Below, one piece after another: positions 1 to 7,827 of a stretch of DNA of 22,996 nt. Both the position numbers and the translations under genes were made by a program. Source of the stretch: an uncultured bacterium (GTDB lineage Bacteria; Hydrogenedentota; Hydrogenedentia; Hydrogenedentales; JAEUWI01). The DNA lies in NCBI GenBank assembly GCA_963977445.1, contig CAXBPH010000093.1, positions 1 to 22,996 of the forward strand. The letters run 5' to 3'. Each line of letters starts with the position of its first letter. Position 1 is the stretch's first letter. The notes below the pieces were generated by a model, which saw only the letters and a program-made list of their open reading frames with translations, searched no databases and had not been told where the DNA came from.

Positions 1-263
1 TTATGCCGGAGAAAAATATGAGCATACAAGACTCTTGCGGTTTTCGTCTACGACAACACGCCTGCAGTATGCGTTTCTGGGTTAAAAAGTAAACTCGCCG
101 GAAAGTGTCTCATCTCCGGCGTGTTTAACATTTTCTTCACGATCCTCCAGGACACAGAGCAATCCATGCGCCCAAAAATACCGCACATCCGGTTTTTTTG
201 ACTGGCGTTTTACTACCCTTCTCCCCATGTGAATCATGTTTTTGATGGGGTTTGTCATGCTGT

Positions 264-1430
264 TTATCCATGGGTTGCTGCCCATGCGGCAGCGGTCTTG
301 TTGTCGCGGTGGACGTAGACCTGGGTGATATTCAATCCACTGTGGCCGAGAATGGCGGAGGCGGTTTCGAGATCGGCTGTTGCCTCCATAATCGTCGCGG
401 CTGTATGACGGAGACGATACGGACACCAGCGTTCAACATCGGCTTTCGTGCAGGCCCGAGTAATGGCACGATTGTAGGCATGCGCTTCATAGTGGTCTCC
501 CACGGTTCGACCGGATTTGTTGCGATTCGGCTTCTGATTGGCACGGCGTCCCTTACCCGTACGATCCCGTACGTGGCGTTCCTTCTCGGCTTCCCTCGGG
601 CTGAAAAGATAGTCGTCGTCATTCCGTAGTAGGAACGGCCGCAAAACCGCCTGAGCTCGTGGGCCAAAGAACAGGCTACGCTTCTTCCCTTTGTAGTTGG
701 TTTTATGCTCCCGAATGACAGCGGACCATGTCTCTCCACTACAATCCAAATCTCCACGCTTCAAATTCAGAATCTCGGAGGGCCGAGCTCCCGTACACAA
801 TTGGAGCCGCACGATGGCTTGAAGCGGTTTCGTCAGGTGCTCCAGCGTAGCGTCGATATCGGCCATAGGAACCGGTTCACGCTCTACGGGGTCCTTCCCA
901 ACGCCTCGACCTTTACGCAGTCCGGGTAGCGTCGCCAGTGCCTGATAGGTTTCAACAGGAATCATCTCGTAACTAACTGCCCATTTGAACATGCGGCGAA
1001 TCATGCCCACCCGGCTATTGATGGTTGTAATGGAAAGGTTGTCGTCTATCCAGTGCTGCCGCACCGCTCGAAGCGCATTCGGCCCAAAGGAAGCCGCCGG
1101 GATCTCCGCGTACAACGCCAGAACCTTTTTGATGGTGGCCACGTTCTCAATTTGGGTGGAACTTGGATTGCCGCTTGCGTCACGGTAGTAGACTTCACAG
1201 TGCTCAAGATACTGGTCGGCCAGTTCAAGCAGGGTGATTTCTTCGGGCGCTACGGGGAGACGATGACCGTTGGCCATCCACTCTGAGATGAAGGCGTGGT
1301 AGGCCTGCTTTGTTGACTGAAGGTCGTAGCGGCCCAGATAATGGCGTTTGCCATCAATTTCGACAAAACCCTGGTTGCTGGGCTTATGATGGCGGAAGGT
1401 GGGGGTACGGGGAATGCGAATCGTGGCCAT
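264..1430 (-). CDS. Tyrosine recombinase / phage-type integrase
   Basis: Catalytic motifs TGARPSE (Arg), YRLRH (HxxR-like), LGH and VY (Tyr). The N-terminal HKPSNQGFVEIDGKRHYLG resembles planctomycete-type integrases. Start moved from 1535 to ATG 1430, which is preceded by AGGAG. Adjacent to the tRNA 3' end. Confidence 0.95.
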   Translation of the reverse strand: MATIRIPRTPTFRHHKPSNQGFVEIDGKRHYLGRYDLQSTKQAYHAFISEWMANGHRLPVAPEEITLLELADQYLEHCEVYYRDASGNPSSTQIENVATIKKVLALYAEIPAASFGPNALRAVRQHWIDDNLSITTINSRVGMIRRMFKWAVSYEMIPVETYQALATLPGLRKGRGVGKDPVEREPVPMADIDATLEHLTKPLQAIVRLQLCTGARPSEILNLKRGDLDCSGETWSAVIREHKTNYKGKKRSLFFGPRAQAVLRPFLLRNDDDYLFSPREAEKERHVRDRTGKGRRANQKPNRNKSGRTVGDHYEAHAYNRAITRACTKADVERWCPYRLRHTAATIMEATADLETASAILGHSGLNITQVYVHRDNKTAAAWAATHG

Positions 1431-1449
1431 TTTGGCTGCTCCTATTGGG

Positions 1450-1473
1450 CGTTCGGTTAGTACTAACCGAACG
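1450..1473. repeat. Perfect 24-bp palindrome upstream of the integrase
   Basis: CGTTCGGTTAGTACTAACCGAACG is its own reverse complement. It is followed by TTTT on the + strand. Confidence 0.9.
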
Positions 1474-1547
1474 TTTTCAAGGTTTACAGCCGCACCGACG
1501 CGATGTCGGGTACCACGTAACTCGTGATTCAGCAAAGAGTTATAAAA

Positions 1548-1624
1548 TGGTGGGCGATGCAGGATTCGAACCTGCGACCCTCTGTGTGTAAGACAGATGC
1601 TCTAACCAACTGAGCTAATCGCCC
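1548..1624 (-). tRNA. tRNA-Val (anticodon TAC)
   Basis: Reverse complement GGGCGATTAGCTCAGTTGGTTAGAGCATCTGTCTTACACACAGAGGGTCGCAGGTTCGAATCCTGCATCGCCCACCA gives a 77-nt cloverleaf with anticodon loop CTTACAC, T-loop TTCGAAT and encoded CCA. Confidence 0.98.
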
Positions 1625-1662
1625 ATGGGCCTGACGGGTGGTCAGGCAACTAAGGGACGGAT

Positions 1663-1691
1663 AGTATATCATTTGACGGGGATGGCATCAA
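1663..1691 (-). promoter_or_regulatory. Sigma70-type promoter for tRNA-Val
   Basis: Minus strand reads TTGATG-N17-TATACT with an extended -10 TGn, about 40 bp upstream of the tRNA. Confidence 0.75.
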
Positions 1692-1892
1692 CTTGTAACC
1701 GGAAGTTTTTTACGGACGTCTTTTTCTATTCCAATTGAGAAATTGATGCCGAGGAGAACATTTCTCGAAGAAGGCCCGGATGCGGACAGAGAAATTGGCG
1801 GGACTACTATCATGATAGAATTTATCCGCTTGGTGTGATTGTACAGTTGTACACCTTGCTCAAAGATTGCTGGATTATTACCAATAGATAAC

Positions 1893-1921
1893 TTGACGTG
1901 TTGGCTGTGGGTACCTACACT
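1893..1921 (+). promoter_or_regulatory. Sigma70-type promoter for the DUF347 gene
   Basis: TTGACG-N17-TACACT. Confidence 0.6.
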
Positions 1922-2071
1922 GAATCCACTCGATAGTCACCGTTTGTGGTCAACACGGTCATTCAGACGTCCAAGGCGAGATGAGAGAAGCTGAGGCGCA
2001 GGCGACATTCTTGGCGATAGAACGTTCCGTTCATTGATAATATCCACTGTAGCCTCAAGGAGTATAACGAT

Positions 2072-2848
2072 ATGAATAAGGTCAACGATTTGAATAAGAC
2101 CACCGACACAGGCTTCAGCAAAGTTCCGGAACTTACACTTCTTTTCTGGATTATCAAGATTGCGGCCACCACACTCGGAGAGACCGGTGGTGACGCGGTT
2201 TCGATGTCGATGAATCTCGGGTATCTGGTTGGCACGTTGATATTCGGCGTAATTTTTGCCGTAGCCGTATACGCGCAGATACGGGCATCGCGATTCCACC
2301 CAGCGCTATATTGGATCACGATTATTGCCACGACGACCGTGGGAACGACGTTGGCGGACTTTGCAGACCGTTCCCTTGGTATTGGTTATCCCGGTGGCGC
2401 GACGTTGTTATTTATCCTCTTGATAACGTCTCTTTTTGTCTGGTACCGCACACTGGGCACGGTTTCCGTTGAGAGCGTAAGTACGCGAAAATCAGAGATT
2501 TTCTATTGGGTAACGATAATGTTTTCGCAAACCCTGGGCACGGCCCTTGGAGATTGGACCGCCGACACGGCAGGCCTAGGTTATGGTGGGAGCGCGATAA
2601 TATTCGGCGCGTTATTGGCGATTGTCGCGGCTGCCTATTTCTGGTCGTCTGTTTCCCATACGATCCTCTTTTGGGCAGCTTTCGTACTTACCCGACCACT
2701 TGGCGCGGTCGTTGGCGACTTGCTCGACAAACCCATTGATGCGGGCGGACTGGCATTTAGTCGCTATACGGCATCGGCGGTACTTATCGTGTTCATCGTA
2801 ATCTGCATTTATGCTTTCCCCCACCGGCCCGCAAAACAAAGCCACTAA
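2072..2848 (+). CDS. COG4705 / DUF347-repeat integral membrane protein
   Basis: Starts SKVPELTLLFWIIKIAATTLGETGGD, with internal repeats (TTVGTTLAD, QTLGTALGD, TRPLGAVVGD) and multiple TM helices. AAGGAG RBS. Confidence 0.88.
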   Translation: MNKVNDLNKTTDTGFSKVPELTLLFWIIKIAATTLGETGGDAVSMSMNLGYLVGTLIFGVIFAVAVYAQIRASRFHPALYWITIIATTTVGTTLADFADRSLGIGYPGGATLLFILLITSLFVWYRTLGTVSVESVSTRKSEIFYWVTIMFSQTLGTALGDWTADTAGLGYGGSAIIFGALLAIVAAAYFWSSVSHTILFWAAFVLTRPLGAVVGDLLDKPIDAGGLAFSRYTASAVLIVFIVICIYAFPHRPAKQSH

Positions 2849-2943
2849 TGGTTGTTTTCACCCCTGATCGCTACCTGTTTTATCGACGGCGGTCATCTTC
2901 GCGAACGCAGAAAGCCATAGTTGCCCTGGGGCGGGCGTATCCG

Positions 2944-2980
2944 GAGGGTCGCAGGTTCGAATCCTGCATCGCCCACCATT
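2944..2980 (+). repeat. att-like 37-bp copy of the tRNA-Val 3' end, inverted relative to the tRNA
   Basis: GAGGGTCGCAGGTTCGAATCCTGCATCGCCCACCATT is the exact reverse complement of 1546-1582. No D-arm or anticodon arm lies upstream, so it is not a full tRNA. Confidence 0.95.
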
Positions 2981-2989
2981 CAACTATAT

Positions 2990-3033
2990 ACGGTTCAAGG
3001 ACTTAATACGTTTTGTCCCTGGGCCGTTTTTTT
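2990..3033 (+). terminator. Rho-independent terminator after the tRNA fragment
   Basis: Stem ACGGTTCAAGGAC / GTCCCTGGGCCGT (2 G-U pairs, 1 mismatch) followed by a T run. Confidence 0.7.
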
Positions 3034-3200
3034 GTGCCCGGAACGGAATAGGGGTGATATTTTCCGGATAATGTGTGGCGTGGGTACGGAGCGTGAACAA
3101 ATCCCGCGAACGCCCAATAGCACCTCTGCTTGAACTGACCTGCGTTTGCAATGCCCTACCAGCTTCTCCATACTTGCAGCCTCAACGAGGAGTATCTTAT

Positions 3201-4346
3201 ATGGACGACGGGCAATCGGACGCGCTAACGTCCGGAGCACCACCGACAAAAGGCGAAAGCGAAAGTTCCCGGCGGCTCATGTCCCTGGACGCGTTGCGCG
3301 GTTTCGATATGTTCTGGATTATCGGTGCGGATGCGCTCGTGGCTTCCATGGCGAAGGTCAGTCATATTGGCATGTTCGGCTTCTTCGCCCACCAACTTAC
3401 CCATGCGGAGTGGGAAGGATTTCGTTTCTACGATCTGATATTTCCGCTGTTTCTTTTCATCGTAGGTATTTCAACGGTTTTTTCCCTTGAGCAGAGCATC
3501 GCGAAGGAAGGAAAGAAGGCCGCCTATTACCGACTTCTTCGCCGATTTGCCTTCCTTTGGTTTTGGGCATTTATTTATAGCGGCGGCTTCGCCCAGGAAA
3601 AGATTAGTTTCGCCGGTGTCCTGCAGCGCATATCCTACTGCTACCTGATTACGTCCCTGCTCTATCTGAATTTCCGGTTGCGGGGTCTGGTGGTGGTGTG
3701 CGTGGCCATACTGATTGGCTATTGGGCACTGATGACCTTCGTACCTGTTCCCGAATTGGGTCGACCGACCTTTGACATGCATACCAACTGGTCCAACTAT
3801 CTCGATCGGCACTATTTGCCGGGAGATCGAGAAGAGAAGGGGTGGCGCAACGAGGGCATGCTCAGCACCGTTCCGGCCATCTCAACCTGTTTGTTGGGTG
3901 TTTTTGCCGGGCTGTTAATCGGTGCAAACTCGGTAACGCCGTGGCGCAAGTTTGCACTTCTTGCTGGAAGCGGAATTGCTCTGGTGGCGTTGGGATTTCT
4001 GTGGGGCCTCCAATTTCCAGTAATTAAGCGTATTTGGACATCCTCCTACGTGCTGGTCGCAGGCGGGTATAGTTGTCTTTTTCTTGCCTTTTTTTATGCC
4101 GTTATCGACATACTGAATTACCGGGCTTGGGCCAGGCCCTTTGTATGGATCGGTGCCAACTCATTGGTGATGTACCTGATTGCAGGGCTCTTGCCCTATC
4201 ACGAGTTTACCGGTCGTATTGTGGCGGGCCCCGTTCAACGTATGTTTTCACCCTATGATGGTGTTGCAGAGACCATCCTCGCACTGGTCCTGGTCACCGT
4301 GTTTGCACACTTCTTATACAAGCGAAAAATATTTCTGCGCGTTTAG
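3201..4346 (+). CDS. Membrane acyltransferase, HGSNAT / NagX-like (DUF5009-type)
   Basis: Motifs RLMSLDALRGFDMFWI, HAEWEGFRFYDLIFPLFLFIVG, GVLQRI, EGMLST and PVIKRIWTSSYVL. ATG 3201 follows a GAGGAG RBS. Confidence 0.88.
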   Translation: MDDGQSDALTSGAPPTKGESESSRRLMSLDALRGFDMFWIIGADALVASMAKVSHIGMFGFFAHQLTHAEWEGFRFYDLIFPLFLFIVGISTVFSLEQSIAKEGKKAAYYRLLRRFAFLWFWAFIYSGGFAQEKISFAGVLQRISYCYLITSLLYLNFRLRGLVVVCVAILIGYWALMTFVPVPELGRPTFDMHTNWSNYLDRHYLPGDREEKGWRNEGMLSTVPAISTCLLGVFAGLLIGANSVTPWRKFALLAGSGIALVALGFLWGLQFPVIKRIWTSSYVLVAGGYSCLFLAFFYAVIDILNYRAWARPFVWIGANSLVMYLIAGLLPYHEFTGRIVAGPVQRMFSPYDGVAETILALVLVTVFAHFLYKRKIFLRV

Positions 4347-4593
4347 CGTGGACAGGGGCTTAAGGTGTTGTTCACCATCTGATGTGGCTGCCTTCGGTGT
4401 CGCCAGATAGGGCTCCGACCATGACGGGATGGTTGTGGTATTCGGGTGAACCCGTCGTTCACGCGAAGGGGGGCGTAGCGCGAATGCAGAAAGCCATCGT
4501 CACCCTTGGGATTGCCGCGCTCGTGGGACTTCTGAGAGCAGAAATAGCTTTCAATTTGGCGATACGAAAGACGTTTTCCCGTGGGGGATTTTG

Positions 4594-4761: not shown

Positions 4762-4878
4762 AAACGTACGCTTCGCTCCAATACGGTCGACTTAGCGGCC
4801 CACGCCTTTTTTTGGAAGTCCCCGCTCGTGGGAATTGGCACCTTTTTTAGCCCAGTGGCCTCTGCCTCGTCCTCGCTT

Positions 4879-7827
4879 TTACCGGCGAGCTGGCGCTTCG
4901 CCGAGGCCGAGGGCGGGCAGGCCTTCGGTGTGATTGATGTTCGTGCGCCAGAGAACGGTCTGGCCGTCGCTGCTCTGGGTGGAAAAGAAGAGCCATTCGC
5001 CACCGTCGGTGAGATTGGTGGGATTCCATTGTGGGCCTCGATTCGTCGTGCCTCCGGCAATTTGAACCTGATTGGTGCCTTTCGAAATGCAAAGGATTGC
5101 ATTGCTCGCTACGATGTCGATTTGACTGAGTCGTGCCGTGAACACCAGATGGTCCTCACCCCACTGGATAAATTCCCGTGGCGTGCCACTTTTGGCACCC
5201 AGGTAGGCATCGTATACAAGTTCCGTGCCGTCTCGGGTGCCATTGGATCGCCAGAGTTCGGTGCCATGAATACCGTCGTCGGCGGCAAAATAAATATAGC
5301 CATCGAAGACTTTGAAGTCATGGGGGAAGCTGCCCTGGGGGCCTGGAAAAATGTCGCGGACGAGGGTGGTCGTGGCGTTGGTGGCATCGGTGACCCATAG
5401 TTCAGCGCCATACTCGCTGGTGGTGTTGACGATGACGATTCGGTCGCCCAAGGTTGCCCAGGGGGAACTCGCAGGCATGGGGGCCTGTACGGCATCCAGG
5501 CGGTCAAAAAGGGGCTTCGTTCCCGTGGCGGTGCCGTCTGTTTCCCAGAGCACCCGTCCCAAGGTTGGGTGGTCCGCGCCAAACAGCGCTCGATTGCCAA
5601 CAAGGAGGGTGCCATGTGCGCCGCCATCTTCAGGACCGGGCAGGCAATCAAAGAGCAGGTGGGTGCCTTCCGTTGTGCCATCACTGAACCAGAGCTCTTC
5701 ACCGTGCACACCATCATCGGCGGTAAAAAGTAATCCGTCGCCGAATTCGCAAAAGGCGAAGGGGTTACCGGAGGCCACCCCCGGCGCGATGTCGCGGACC
5801 ATGCGGGTGCCTTCGTGTGTACCATCGGATACCCAGAGTTCCTGACCGTTTTCGGCCGTGAGGGCGCTGAAAAAGAGGAGGCCGCCCGACTCGGTGAAGC
5901 GATAGGGACTGGCGTCCATCGGACCGGGATTAATATCGCGGAGGAAGCGGGTGCCGCCGTCGGTGCCATCGGTAAACCAGAGTTCCCGACCGGACTCCGG
6001 GGTTGTCGCTACGATGACAGCGCCATCGCGAAAGGGGGCCATTTGCGGGTCCTGCAAACCGCCCTGTTCGCCCGGATAGAATTCATGAATTAATCGAAGA
6101 CTGCCGGGCTTGGGGCTCGCGCCCCAAAGCTCTCGTCCTCTATTTCCATCACTCGCTTCGGCGATCACCTGTTCGTCGAGGGTTAAGAACTCACCGATGG
6201 AAGTCGCACCGGAGTCAGCAGGCCAGAGCAAATAGGGCTCCTCAGCGTCCTTGGGCCAATGATACAGGGCCCCGGTGGTATGGCATGTGAAATACATGCC
6301 TCCAGATTGTGTAAATCTGATACCCGTGACGATGGGTAAATACCTGTCCCCCCACCGTTGGCGCGTTCCCTCGATGGTGCCGTCGGTCTCCCAAAGGCCA
6401 AACGTATTATCACCGGCGATTCGGTTGAACCACACTTTCCCATCACGGGCTCCCAGCAGCTCGATGCGATTGGCGTCCACGCTGGTGGCGTAGGCCAGTA
6501 CGGTGGTTCCTTCCGGCGTGCCATCGGTTCGGAAAAGGCGGATGCCATCCGATTTCGTGCGGACGACGCCGACCATGCCGTTTGCTACCGGATGACCGCC
6601 ATCCTTGAAGACGTTGTCATCGGGGCCCAGAGACAGCTCGGGCCACAAGGGAACTACGTCGCCTGTCGTCGTGTTATAGCTCCAAAGGCTGCGCCAGTCC
6701 CCGACGACGGCCGTAAATACGACGTAGTCTCCCACGGCGGCAAGATGGGCGACATCGGGAGAAACCACGGGCGTGGTCGACGGGGCATCGGGCAGTTTAG
6801 TTATTTCTTCCGTCGGAACGATGGTGGGCTCCGAGGAGGGCAATAGATACCAGGTAAATCCTGCCACCAGCATCACGAAGGTCGCCGCAGCGAGCGCCAG
6901 CCATCGTGGGGCGCGGTGAGCAACGCGTGGACGGCGAAGTCCTCCGGGCGGGGTGACGCGCATGGTCTCCGTGCCGCCATCGGGCAGGTCTAAAAACTCC
7001 TCGGTCTCGCGCAGGCGTTGGAGGGCAACCCCGGCGTCCTTTGGGCGATTCGCCGGCGTTACATCGAGCATGTCTTCGAGCAGTGACGCCAGGTCGTCTG
7101 AAATGTCAGGCAACAAGTCGCGCACGGGGACAGCGGAGGCATCGATCGTCTTGCGCATGATATCGAGGGGCGAGTCACCGTCGAAGGGTGTTTTTCCGGC
7201 CAGCAACTCCAGGAGCACCAGCCCCGTACTATACACATCGCCTGCCGGGGAGGGGGGAACCTTGTCCCAGGATTCGGGAGGTGCATATTTTGGGGTGCCG
7301 ATGAAACAGGACGACGTGGCCGTGGCGACGGAGCTAAGACCGAAGGACATGGCCAGACCGAAGTCGGACAAGAGTATGCGGCCGTCGTAGGCAATAAGAA
7401 TATTCGCGGGTTTGACGTCGCGATGAATCATATTTCTGATGTGGCATGCGGCGAGCGCGTTCAGCACACGGTTGACAATGCCCAAGGCATCCGGCCGGTC
7501 TATAGGTCCCCGCAGGAGTATCTGGTCCAGGGAATTTCCATCGATATATTCCATATCGATGAGGTGGCTGCCACCAATTTCTTCAATGGCGTGGACGCGC
7601 ACGATGCCGGGGTGGGTCAACGCCGCAATGGCTTGGGCTTCACGAACAAACCCCGCGACAAACCCAGAATCCAGCGTCAACGCCGGGTGGAGGATTTTCA
7701 GGGCGACTTGCCGACGCAGCCGAGTGTCTTCTGCGAGATAGACCACACCCATCCCGCCACGACCCAACTCGTGCAAGAGACGGTACTTCCCCGTTTGAGC
7801 GAAGCCCTCGTTACTGGTCCCACTCAA
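4879..7827 (-). CDS. Hanks-type Ser/Thr protein kinase with TM helix and C-terminal ELWxxDGT-repeat domain
   Basis: Kinase motifs GRGGMGVVY, VALK, HRDVKPAN, DFG and GTPKYAPPE. TM segment WLALAAATFVMLVAGFTWYLL. About 8-10 repeats such as ELWFTDGT, ELWVSDGT, ELWFSDGT and ELWRSNGT. TTG start is less certain. Confidence 0.92.
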   Translation of the reverse strand: MSGTSNEGFAQTGKYRLLHELGRGGMGVVYLAEDTRLRRQVALKILHPALTLDSGFVAGFVREAQAIAALTHPGIVRVHAIEEIGGSHLIDMEYIDGNSLDQILLRGPIDRPDALGIVNRVLNALAACHIRNMIHRDVKPANILIAYDGRILLSDFGLAMSFGLSSVATATSSCFIGTPKYAPPESWDKVPPSPAGDVYSTGLVLLELLAGKTPFDGDSPLDIMRKTIDASAVPVRDLLPDISDDLASLLEDMLDVTPANRPKDAGVALQRLRETEEFLDLPDGGTETMRVTPPGGLRRPRVAHRAPRWLALAAATFVMLVAGFTWYLLPSSEPTIVPTEEITKLPDAPSTTPVVSPDVAHLAAVGDYVVFTAVVGDWRSLWSYNTTTGDVVPLWPELSLGPDDNVFKDGGHPVANGMVGVVRTKSDGIRLFRTDGTPEGTTVLAYATSVDANRIELLGARDGKVWFNRIAGDNTFGLWETDGTIEGTRQRWGDRYLPIVTGIRFTQSGGMYFTCHTTGALYHWPKDAEEPYLLWPADSGATSIGEFLTLDEQVIAEASDGNRGRELWGASPKPGSLRLIHEFYPGEQGGLQDPQMAPFRDGAVIVATTPESGRELWFTDGTDGGTRFLRDINPGPMDASPYRFTESGGLLFFSALTAENGQELWVSDGTHEGTRMVRDIAPGVASGNPFAFCEFGDGLLFTADDGVHGEELWFSDGTTEGTHLLFDCLPGPEDGGAHGTLLVGNRALFGADHPTLGRVLWETDGTATGTKPLFDRLDAVQAPMPASSPWATLGDRIVIVNTTSEYGAELWVTDATNATTTLVRDIFPGPQGSFPHDFKVFDGYIYFAADDGIHGTELWRSNGTRDGTELVYDAYLGAKSGTPREFIQWGEDHLVFTARLSQIDIVASNAILCISKGTNQVQIAGGTTNRGPQWNPTNLTDGGEWLFFSTQSSDGQTVLWRTNINHTEGLPALGLGEAPARR

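Follow-up and report, generated by a model that had tools for sequence, protein, structure and literature searches.

Inverted tRNA-Val attachment-type repeats beside a tyrosine integrase gene in an uncultured Hydrogenedentota bacterium: a possible product of past recombination in cis

In a 22,996-nt stretch of DNA from an uncultured bacterium of the Hydrogenedentota (assembly GCA_963977445.1, contig CAXBPH010000093.1; the whole stretch is here called the window, position 1 being its first nucleotide), the 3′ end of a tRNA-Val gene recurs in inverted orientation upstream of that gene, and a tyrosine integrase gene adjoins the tRNA gene on its other side. The segment between the two copies carries the remainder of the tRNA gene together with a gene for a DUF347 membrane protein. 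An earlier note, made from the sequence of this stretch alone, had proposed that the integrase flips the segment, possibly as a phase switch. The locus thus raises the question of how an attachment (att)-type repeat came to bound a kilobase-scale piece of DNA in inverted orientation, and whether that piece still turns over. In the reading we favour, to which we give a probability of about one half, the copies are an attL/attR pair that became inverted through a past recombination in cis and that now forms a largely fixed island end.

The inverted repeat and the tRNA-Val gene

The sole tRNA of the window, as called by ARAGORN, is a tRNA-Val(UAC) (anticodon tac) at 1548–1624 on the minus strand, which scores 76.8 bits with the Rfam model RF00005 (gathering score 29); its gene is intact and encodes the CCA. 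Positions 1546–1582 (minus strand), i.e. the 3′ end of this gene plus 2 nt, and positions 2944–2980 (plus strand), a displaced fragment of the same 3′ end, form an inverted repeat of 37 nt that is 100% complementary, with 1361 nt between the arms. This pair is the longest perfect inverted repeat of the window. It had been described as a perfect 37-bp inverted repeat in the earlier note, and the repeat search and blastn agree on it, the latter with an E-value of 9e-15 when the region was compared with the window. When up to 3 mismatches are tolerated, the 37-mer occurs at just two places in the window and nowhere in any of 100 shuffled versions. The earlier note had also advised counting all copies of the 37-mer and recording their orientation: within the window, the count is two, on opposite strands.

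Mapped onto the tRNA, the repeat comprises nt 43–77 and a further 2 nt (TT) past the CCA. It takes in the last 2 nt of the anticodon stem, the variable loop, the T arm, the 3′ strand of the acceptor, the discriminator and the CCA, as expected from the previous description of an att-type tRNA 3′-end fragment. The arm within the tRNA gene corresponds to an attL-type core and the displaced arm to an attR-type core; the coordinates place the latter upstream of the tRNA gene, on the far side from the integrase gene, which is where the note had seen it. Identity of the two copies breaks off sharply at either end. Global alignment of the flanks, when compared with shuffled sequences, gave z-scores of −0.21 for the 3′ flanks and −0.99 for the 5′ flanks (178 nt), and by eye no tRNA 5′ part is recognisable in the 42 nt left of the right-hand fragment. 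A sharply bounded, perfect repeat of this kind, without homology in its flanks, is the footprint of site-specific recombination and not of a segmental duplication.

After 9 nt past the right-hand copy, an intrinsic terminator begins on the plus strand (2990–3034), consisting of a hairpin at 2990–3027 followed by U7 at 3028–3034, with a predicted folding energy of −18.2 kcal/mol. The earlier note had placed it at 2990–3033; the consensus scan did not list it, since its loop is longer than the limit of the scan. The displaced fragment is thus followed by a terminator whereas the intact tRNA gene is not, which suggests that the tRNA gene was originally followed by the DNA that now starts at 2981. 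The hairpin would then probably be the original terminator of the tRNA, now ending the DUF347 transcript. As a separate observation, GGGCG at 2933–2937 may pair, by eye, with CGCCC of the acceptor strand in the fragment; together with the T arm, this would give a possible acceptor/T-arm minihelix in the 3′ untranslated region of the DUF347 transcript.

Because the copies are inverted, recombination between them can only invert the intervening DNA and never excise it, and the integrase gene lies outside the interval that they bound. The geometry bears out the earlier proposal that a crossover between the copies would flip 1361 bp (1583–2943) and rebuild an identical tRNA-Val gene either way. 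In the flipped order, the integrase gene, a core and the DUF347 gene (an attP-like arrangement) would stand head-to-head with an intact promoter–tRNA–terminator unit (attB). The sequenced and the flipped states are therefore the two sides of an attP × attB / attL × attR reaction taking place in cis.

The integrase gene and the segment interior

Directly 3′ of tRNA-Val and on the same strand, with its start 117 nt from the tRNA 3′ end, lies a gene (264–1430, minus strand) encoding a 388-aa tyrosine integrase that is apparently intact and, by alignment and fold, of the three-domain, lambda-Int-like kind. It matches PF00589 (E 2.6e-17) and phrog_1 (PHROG 1 ‘integrase’; E 8.5e-44). In an alignment with 24 homologues, this protein keeps every family-invariant position, among them R216, K243, R341, H342, H363 and Y372, and its box II region and tyrosine line up with those of XerD and XerA. 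The catalytic set of tyrosine recombinases is thus present (R216, K243, R341, H363 and Y372), the first His of HxxR being, as read from the XerD/XerA alignment, Tyr338. The earlier identification of an integrase gene by the tRNA 3′ end holds in this respect as well, with intact catalytic residues.

Homologues of the integrase are numerous (996 at E ≤ 1e-20 in the protein collection), the best non-self one being 67% identical; the few that are named are proteins of metagenome-assembled genomes from Planctomycetota and Hydrogenedentes. The integrase protein had no match in the phage collection and the 37-mer none in either the phage or the plasmid collection, while a search of the plasmid collection with the integrase returned 69 records, all below 60% identity (23.7–28.1% among the 15 matches listed).

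The AlphaFold (AF2) model of the integrase, with a predicted local distance difference test score (pLDDT) of 82.4, places a three-stranded sheet and a helix at the N-terminus (residues 13–53; strands 13–15, 20–25 and 28–34, helix 38–53, pLDDT about 90), followed by a helical domain and then the catalytic domain. Its best fold matches in the PDB are full-length lambda integrase structures (1z1b, 1z1g and 5j0n), which rank above Tn1549 Int, Xer and Cre and whose chains align over 384–410 columns. The Pfam scan detected no arm-binding family in the protein. Judged by the model, the N-domain looks to be of the arm-binding type, in addition to core-binding and catalytic domains, and the enzyme as a whole looks intact and of the lambda type, i.e. 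arm-binding and directional.

A spacer of 115 nt (1431–1545, minus strand) separates the tRNA 3′ end from the start of the integrase gene and would be the P′-arm side if the left core is attL. Neither the consensus scan nor the RNA fold indicated a U tract, a terminator-like or a promoter-like site on the minus strand of this spacer, and both agree with the earlier note that no U-tailed terminator separates the tRNA from the integrase gene. The spacer contains a perfect 24-nt palindrome (1450–1473, found by blastn) just 5′ of the integrase ribosome-binding site. The leader from 1425 to 1550 (126 nt) has a predicted fold of −45.3 kcal/mol (z −4.52; 0 of 200 shuffles as stable) in which the AGGAG region is paired. 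Palindrome and leader fold may serve the integrase gene as an operator or in the control of its translation.

An exact 14-mer, CGAACGCCCAATAG, occurs at 1442–1455 (minus strand) and 3107–3120 (plus strand), 90 and 126 nt 3′ of the two tRNA-end copies and in the same orientation relative to the core; its left copy, likewise just 5′ of the ribosome-binding site, overlaps the 24-nt palindrome. This post hoc match was reached in 0 of 100 shuffles in a restricted comparison of the flanks, but has an E-value of only 0.19 when the region is compared with the window. A related sequence, CGCGAACGC, lies at 2900–2908, and 4 of the window's 14 CGAACG hexamers fall within 1450–3112. The 14-mer could be a regulator site, an arm-type site or a chance occurrence.

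To the left of the integrase gene, the window extends for 263 bp only; the public collection places the proteins of the window on a contig of 31,456 bp, about 8.5 kb longer than the window. This end holds an open reading frame (ORF) of 58 aa (82–258, minus strand), directly downstream of the integrase gene and a called gene in the public protein collection. It matched no Pfam family (best E 0.19), and a homologue search among candidates of 31–102 aa returned only the sequence itself; it is probably not a conserved gene, as far as sequence comparison can tell. The ORF had been considered as a candidate excision factor and was dropped for want of both a family and a homologue.

The segment between the repeats holds the 5′ part of the tRNA gene, two promoter-like sites and the DUF347 gene. 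A sigma-70 consensus scan over 5 kb returned 5 sites where 4.0 are expected, and the consensus may not suit this lineage. One of the matches (TTGATG, a 17-nt spacing and TATACT, with TG; 1663–1691, minus strand) lies about 40 nt upstream of the tRNA gene, in line with the earlier placement of the tRNA promoter inside the segment, and another (1893–1921, plus strand) is a promoter candidate for the DUF347 gene. With promoter-like sites inside the segment and no terminator before the integrase gene, flipping would change the source of read-through into that gene, in so far as these consensus matches act as promoters. Also upstream of the DUF347 gene are a palindrome, CTATCATGATAG, at 1807–1818 and, by eye, two adjacent TGTACA hexamers (TGTACAGTTGTACA) at 1840–1853, both of which may be operator sites.

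The DUF347 gene itself (2072–2848, plus strand) encodes a membrane protein of 258 aa with four DUF347 repeats (PF03988, E 1.1e-61). Of 15 genes scored, it shows the lowest codon-usage fit, yet one close to that of three flanking genes, and neither GC content at third codon positions nor synonymous codon fit sets the DUF347 and integrase genes apart from their neighbours. At its stop codon (TAATG) begins a 52-aa ORF (2848–3006) that reads through the tRNA fragment. Neither this ORF nor the other small ones that cross the junctions or lie inside the segment (1529–1672, 1625–1738 and 1688–1813) are in the protein collection, and they therefore carry no signal of orientation; of the 9 sequences looked up for the sequenced state, 4 were found, all of them ordinary gene calls. 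Just left of the fragment, 2900–2931 matches an intergenic stretch 1.5 kb to the right (4479–4510) as a direct repeat at 27 of 32 positions, most of the differences falling at third positions of codons in a shared ...QKAIV.LG... reading.

A scan of genomes with the DUF347 protein yielded 587 relatives, of which the best 80 loci (L001–L080) were examined. Across these, the protein is 69–77% identical and comes from many phyla—Proteobacteria, Acidobacteriota, Gemmatimonadota, Verrucomicrobiota, Planctomycetota, Elusimicrobia and others—and no phylogenetic gradient is apparent. Nucleotide similarity is restricted to 2076–2851, the DUF347 coding sequence. Any tRNA gene was present in 14 of the 80 loci and tRNA-Val in two; in both, it lies some 8.4 kb away from the DUF347 gene and a tRNA-Asp comes next. 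The 25-mer from the tRNA 3′ end was present in none. Neither the integrase nor the acyltransferase encoded to the right of the segment was found within 10 kb in any locus (tblastn with 16 window proteins). The best 80 of the 587 thus include neither the window's own genome nor a syntenic relative and hence carry no information on the ancestral gene order. In nine loci (L002, L003, L005, L015, L028, L032, L042, L047 and L071), blastn gave a second, partial DUF347-like match, lying either 5′ of the main gene or at another place in the locus.

Origin of the inverted pair and its surroundings

In the favoured reading, the left copy, with the intact tRNA gene, a host promoter 5′ of it and the integrase gene 3′ of it, would mark the attL-type junction of an integrative element, the remainder of which continues beyond the left end of the window. 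The attR-type junction would be the right copy, which consists of a 3′ fragment without the 5′ part and has the presumed original terminator of the tRNA beyond it. Since integration of a circular element yields direct repeats only, a block of DNA ending at one of the copies must have been turned round later, and the simplest way of inverting it would be for the integrase to act on two sites of one molecule.

Four routes to the inverted pair were weighed: (a) in-cis recombination by the integrase at both cores; (b) an inversion with one end in the attR core and the other in a secondary site past the DUF347 gene; (c) an ordinary inversion whose breakpoints fell close to the cores without coinciding with them; and (d) a pair of independent elements, or another tRNA-Val gene. 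Route (a), which we rate at even odds, accounts for both breakpoints by a known mechanism, provided that attP and attB previously lay close together and head-to-head, a state with precedent in other integrative elements (PMC9174649). Route (b) fits poorly, given that a crossover in the T loop with a secondary site should lose the 12-nt identity 5′ of the T loop, and routes (c) and (d), possible as they are, require coincidences. ‘Wrong-way’ integration via the near-palindromic T loop was also considered and set aside, as it should give palindromic hybrid sites and destroy the tRNA gene, neither of which is seen.

If the enzyme is indeed of the lambda type, the sequenced attL/attR state would be its resting state as long as no excision factor is supplied: an attL × attR reaction by a lambda-like integrase should need arm sites and an excision factor, and turning the segment over would call for such sites on both sides. 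Any attempt at excision through this pair can only flip DNA, and the island end would thereby be locked in. The expected consequence would be a locked-in end that perhaps flips on rare occasions, rather than an evolved regulatory switch.

Several points weigh against this reading or against easy flipping within it. A comparison of 1431–1545 with 2744–2943 for arm-type motifs gave 0 pairs of 10-mers at ≤1 mismatch (1.27 expected), although the arm motif of this integrase may be shorter or more degenerate than such a 10-mer test would catch. In view of the missing shared motif, the DNA left of the fragment need not be element DNA, and the 27/32 match at 2900–2931 may hint that it is host-like, which would weaken the interpretation of the fragment as attR. 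No excision-factor candidate was found in the window; this and the want of arm motifs left of the fragment argue against easy flipping. The DUF347 gene, to judge by its distribution, looks like an ordinary conserved gene and not like cargo, and as this integrase is missing from the 10 kb around the gene in all 80 DUF347 loci, the junction between host and element would have to fall inside the segment. Odd, too, is the prior state that route (a) presupposes, in which no more than about 1.4 kb separates attP from a head-to-head attB. The window offers no evidence of a second att/integrase pair or of another route to head-to-head sites, and the Pfam scan revealed no second integrase among its 17 ORFs. 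Finally, the integrase gene lacks a recognisable promoter and sits downstream of an unterminated tRNA gene, and the 37/37 identity, in a fragment on which no tRNA selection acts, is as compatible with recombination that is recent or still going on as with a recent, fixed event.

Of the alternatives, the one that survives best, although we consider it unlikely, invokes two unrelated or non-site-specific events and no present flipping. The fragment and the terminator would be the orphan attR of an earlier element that had used an ancestral tRNA-Val gene on the plus strand, and the minus-strand tRNA gene, its promoter and the integrase gene would have arrived by an ordinary inversion with breakpoints elsewhere, for instance upstream of the tRNA promoter inside the element; or else the fragment is the edge of a larger element, inserted at a plus-strand tRNA-Val gene beyond the left edge. 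Such an element, or a third copy of the repeat, may lie beyond that edge. The lack of cognate arm motifs left of the fragment, the 27/32 match with its hint of host-like DNA and a composition that does not mark the DUF347 gene as foreign would all be accommodated. Unless there is a second tRNA-Val gene, however, this account has to assume breakpoints that happen to lie no more than about 100 bp to 1.4 kb from both cores, and the undecayed state of the fragment (37/37) speaks against an old orphan. Moreover, the 23 kb show neither an insertion sequence (IS) element nor any further long inverted repeat capable of driving such an inversion.

A more ambitious alternative, and in our view a rather improbable one, is that the locus is an evolved, integrase-driven cassette that actively flips at a useful frequency. 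Each flip would swap the tRNA promoter for the DUF347 promoter as the one reading into the integrase gene and would toggle whether the tRNA ends at the 2990–3034 terminator, thereby controlling integrase level or excision. The layout is inverton-like, with perfect inverted repeats around a kilobase-scale segment that contains promoter-like sites and with a recombinase gene adjoining. The integrase is intact, the 115-nt spacer contains no promoter-like site, so that read-through from the segment is plausible, and ongoing recombination would maintain the 37/37 identity of the fragment. Integrases are, moreover, able to invert DNA between inverted tRNA att sites, as reported for Int-pTN3 (PMC5495485). 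Yet the assembly contains a single state only, and the recombinase belongs to a large family of lambda-type island integrases (the 996 homologues above) and is not a small, dedicated invertase. Arm motifs on the left of the fragment and an excision factor were not found, and there is no second example, the arrangement being present in 0 of 80 DUF347 loci. The DUF347 promoter would also move along with its gene, the expression of which would hardly change. The sole outputs would then be read-through into the integrase gene and termination of the tRNA, a weak rationale for a switch. In its fullest form, as a natural ‘tRNA inverton’, this idea has the integrase and an excision factor encoded further to the left toggling the 1.36-kb cassette as a reversible lock on excision, which we likewise regard as improbable. 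In that form, the essential tRNA would be rebuilt in both states, while the att configuration (attL/attR versus attP/attB) and the promoter reading into the integrase gene would change with each flip.

Least probable of all is an assembly artefact, in which the orientation of the middle segment is arbitrary or the contig is chimeric at the 37-bp repeat: the record appears to be a contig from a metagenome, and a de Bruijn graph does pass a segment between perfect inverted repeats both ways if k ≤ 37, but common assemblers finish at k > 37 and ordinary reads span 37 bp, one chimeric join cannot make both copies when a unique 1361 bp links the junctions, and an error of orientation would still leave a real inverted att pair.

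To the right of the segment, outside the repeats, lies a gene for a membrane acyltransferase of the HGSNAT_cat / Acyl_transf_3 type (3201–4346, plus strand; PF07786, E 2.2e-10), beyond which the Pfam scan identified ordinary chromosomal genes. The nearest of these, at 4879–7827, encodes a 982-aa Ser/Thr kinase (Pkinase, E 2.7e-44) with C-terminal repeats at 5351–5992 (minus strand) that have a period of 144 nt (48 aa). The acyltransferase and kinase genes converge on a 530-bp gap, which contains a long imperfect hairpin (4591–4630/4725–4764) with 40-nt arms that are 90% complementary and a 94-nt loop. It gave sub-threshold Rfam matches only, to a miRNA-precursor model, and is accompanied by further short repeats at 4506–4531 and 4811–4836. 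Near the right edge of the window, a 31-nt inverted repeat (22756–22786/22913–22943; 90% complementary, 126 nt apart) features TTGACCA...TGGTCAA motifs.

Comparison with known systems

The closest known systems in terms of reaction logic are the polypartite integrative and conjugative elements (ICEs). In the bipartite symbiosis ICE (symICE) at tRNA-Val of Bradyrhizobium, the first integration sets attP head-to-head with attB and the second step is an inversion (PMC9174649), and tripartite ICEs, such as ICE3 of Mesorhizobium, are treated in the same terms (PMC5882170). In these elements the attL and attR of one integrase are inverted, as the attL- and attR-type junctions are at the present locus, such that the reverse reaction is an inversion and not an excision (PMC9174649, PMC5882170). 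In contrast, the inversions of polypartite ICEs, as described there, are large-scale and chromosomal, compared with 1361 bp here (PMC9174649, PMC5882170), and these elements, in the same accounts, have a second att/integrase pair, excision factors and conjugation genes, none of which are visible in the window.

A second parallel is the archaeal integrase Int-pTN3 of Thermococcus nautili, reported to invert in vitro an 892-bp spacer between a full tRNA-Leu gene and an inverted minimal fragment of it (PMC5495485). The geometry of that substrate, as reported, is almost exactly the one found at this locus (PMC5495485). However, it belonged to an engineered plasmid and the archaeal enzyme has a relaxed, homology-driven activity, whereas the present site is bacterial and natural and adjoins a gene for an integrase of the lambda type; the natural products of Int-pTN3 are, by the same account, large chromosomal inversions between tRNA genes (PMC5495485). 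In the literature searched, at the level of abstracts, no natural kilobase-scale segment between inverted tRNA att copies was described.

With the invertons of tyrosine recombinases the locus shares inverted repeats that bound a segment and an adjoining recombinase gene. In invertons such as fimS with FimB/FimE, short inverted repeats surround a promoter segment, and the recombinase gene is next to it; FimB/FimE-type recombinases are small and have no arm-binding domain, and their repeats are not tRNA sequence. Unlike at fimS, the repeat at this locus is part of a functional tRNA gene, and the enzyme would be an island-type integrase with an N-domain that, in the model, resembles that of lambda Int.

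What the locus would mean depends on which of the above accounts holds. If the integrase made the pair in cis, recombination between att sites of one molecule would not be confined to the large polypartite ICEs, and an island end could be locked at the kilobase scale. If the segment still flips, it would represent a recombination switch whose repeats lie inside an essential tRNA gene. If it is a fossil, it would be an ordinary rearrangement scar of little wider interest.

Lastly, the locus can be held against the scheme by which Islander recognises integrated islands, in which the displaced fragment has the same orientation as the tRNA gene (tDNA) and lies downstream of it with the integrase gene in between, and in which, in the description used here, cases of opposite orientation are rejected as false positives (PMC4383910). 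The present locus has an intact tDNA, an adjacent tyrosine integrase gene and a displaced 3′ fragment that is identical (37/37). Its copies, in contrast, are on opposite strands, contrary to the orientation filter as described (PMC4383910), and its configuration also departs from that expected by Islander, with the fragment upstream, the integrase gene outside and an interval of 1361 bp versus 2–200 kb (PMC4383910). Since filters of this type, by that account, discard fragments that are opposite or upstream, configurations like the one described here would be systematically unseen (PMC4383910).

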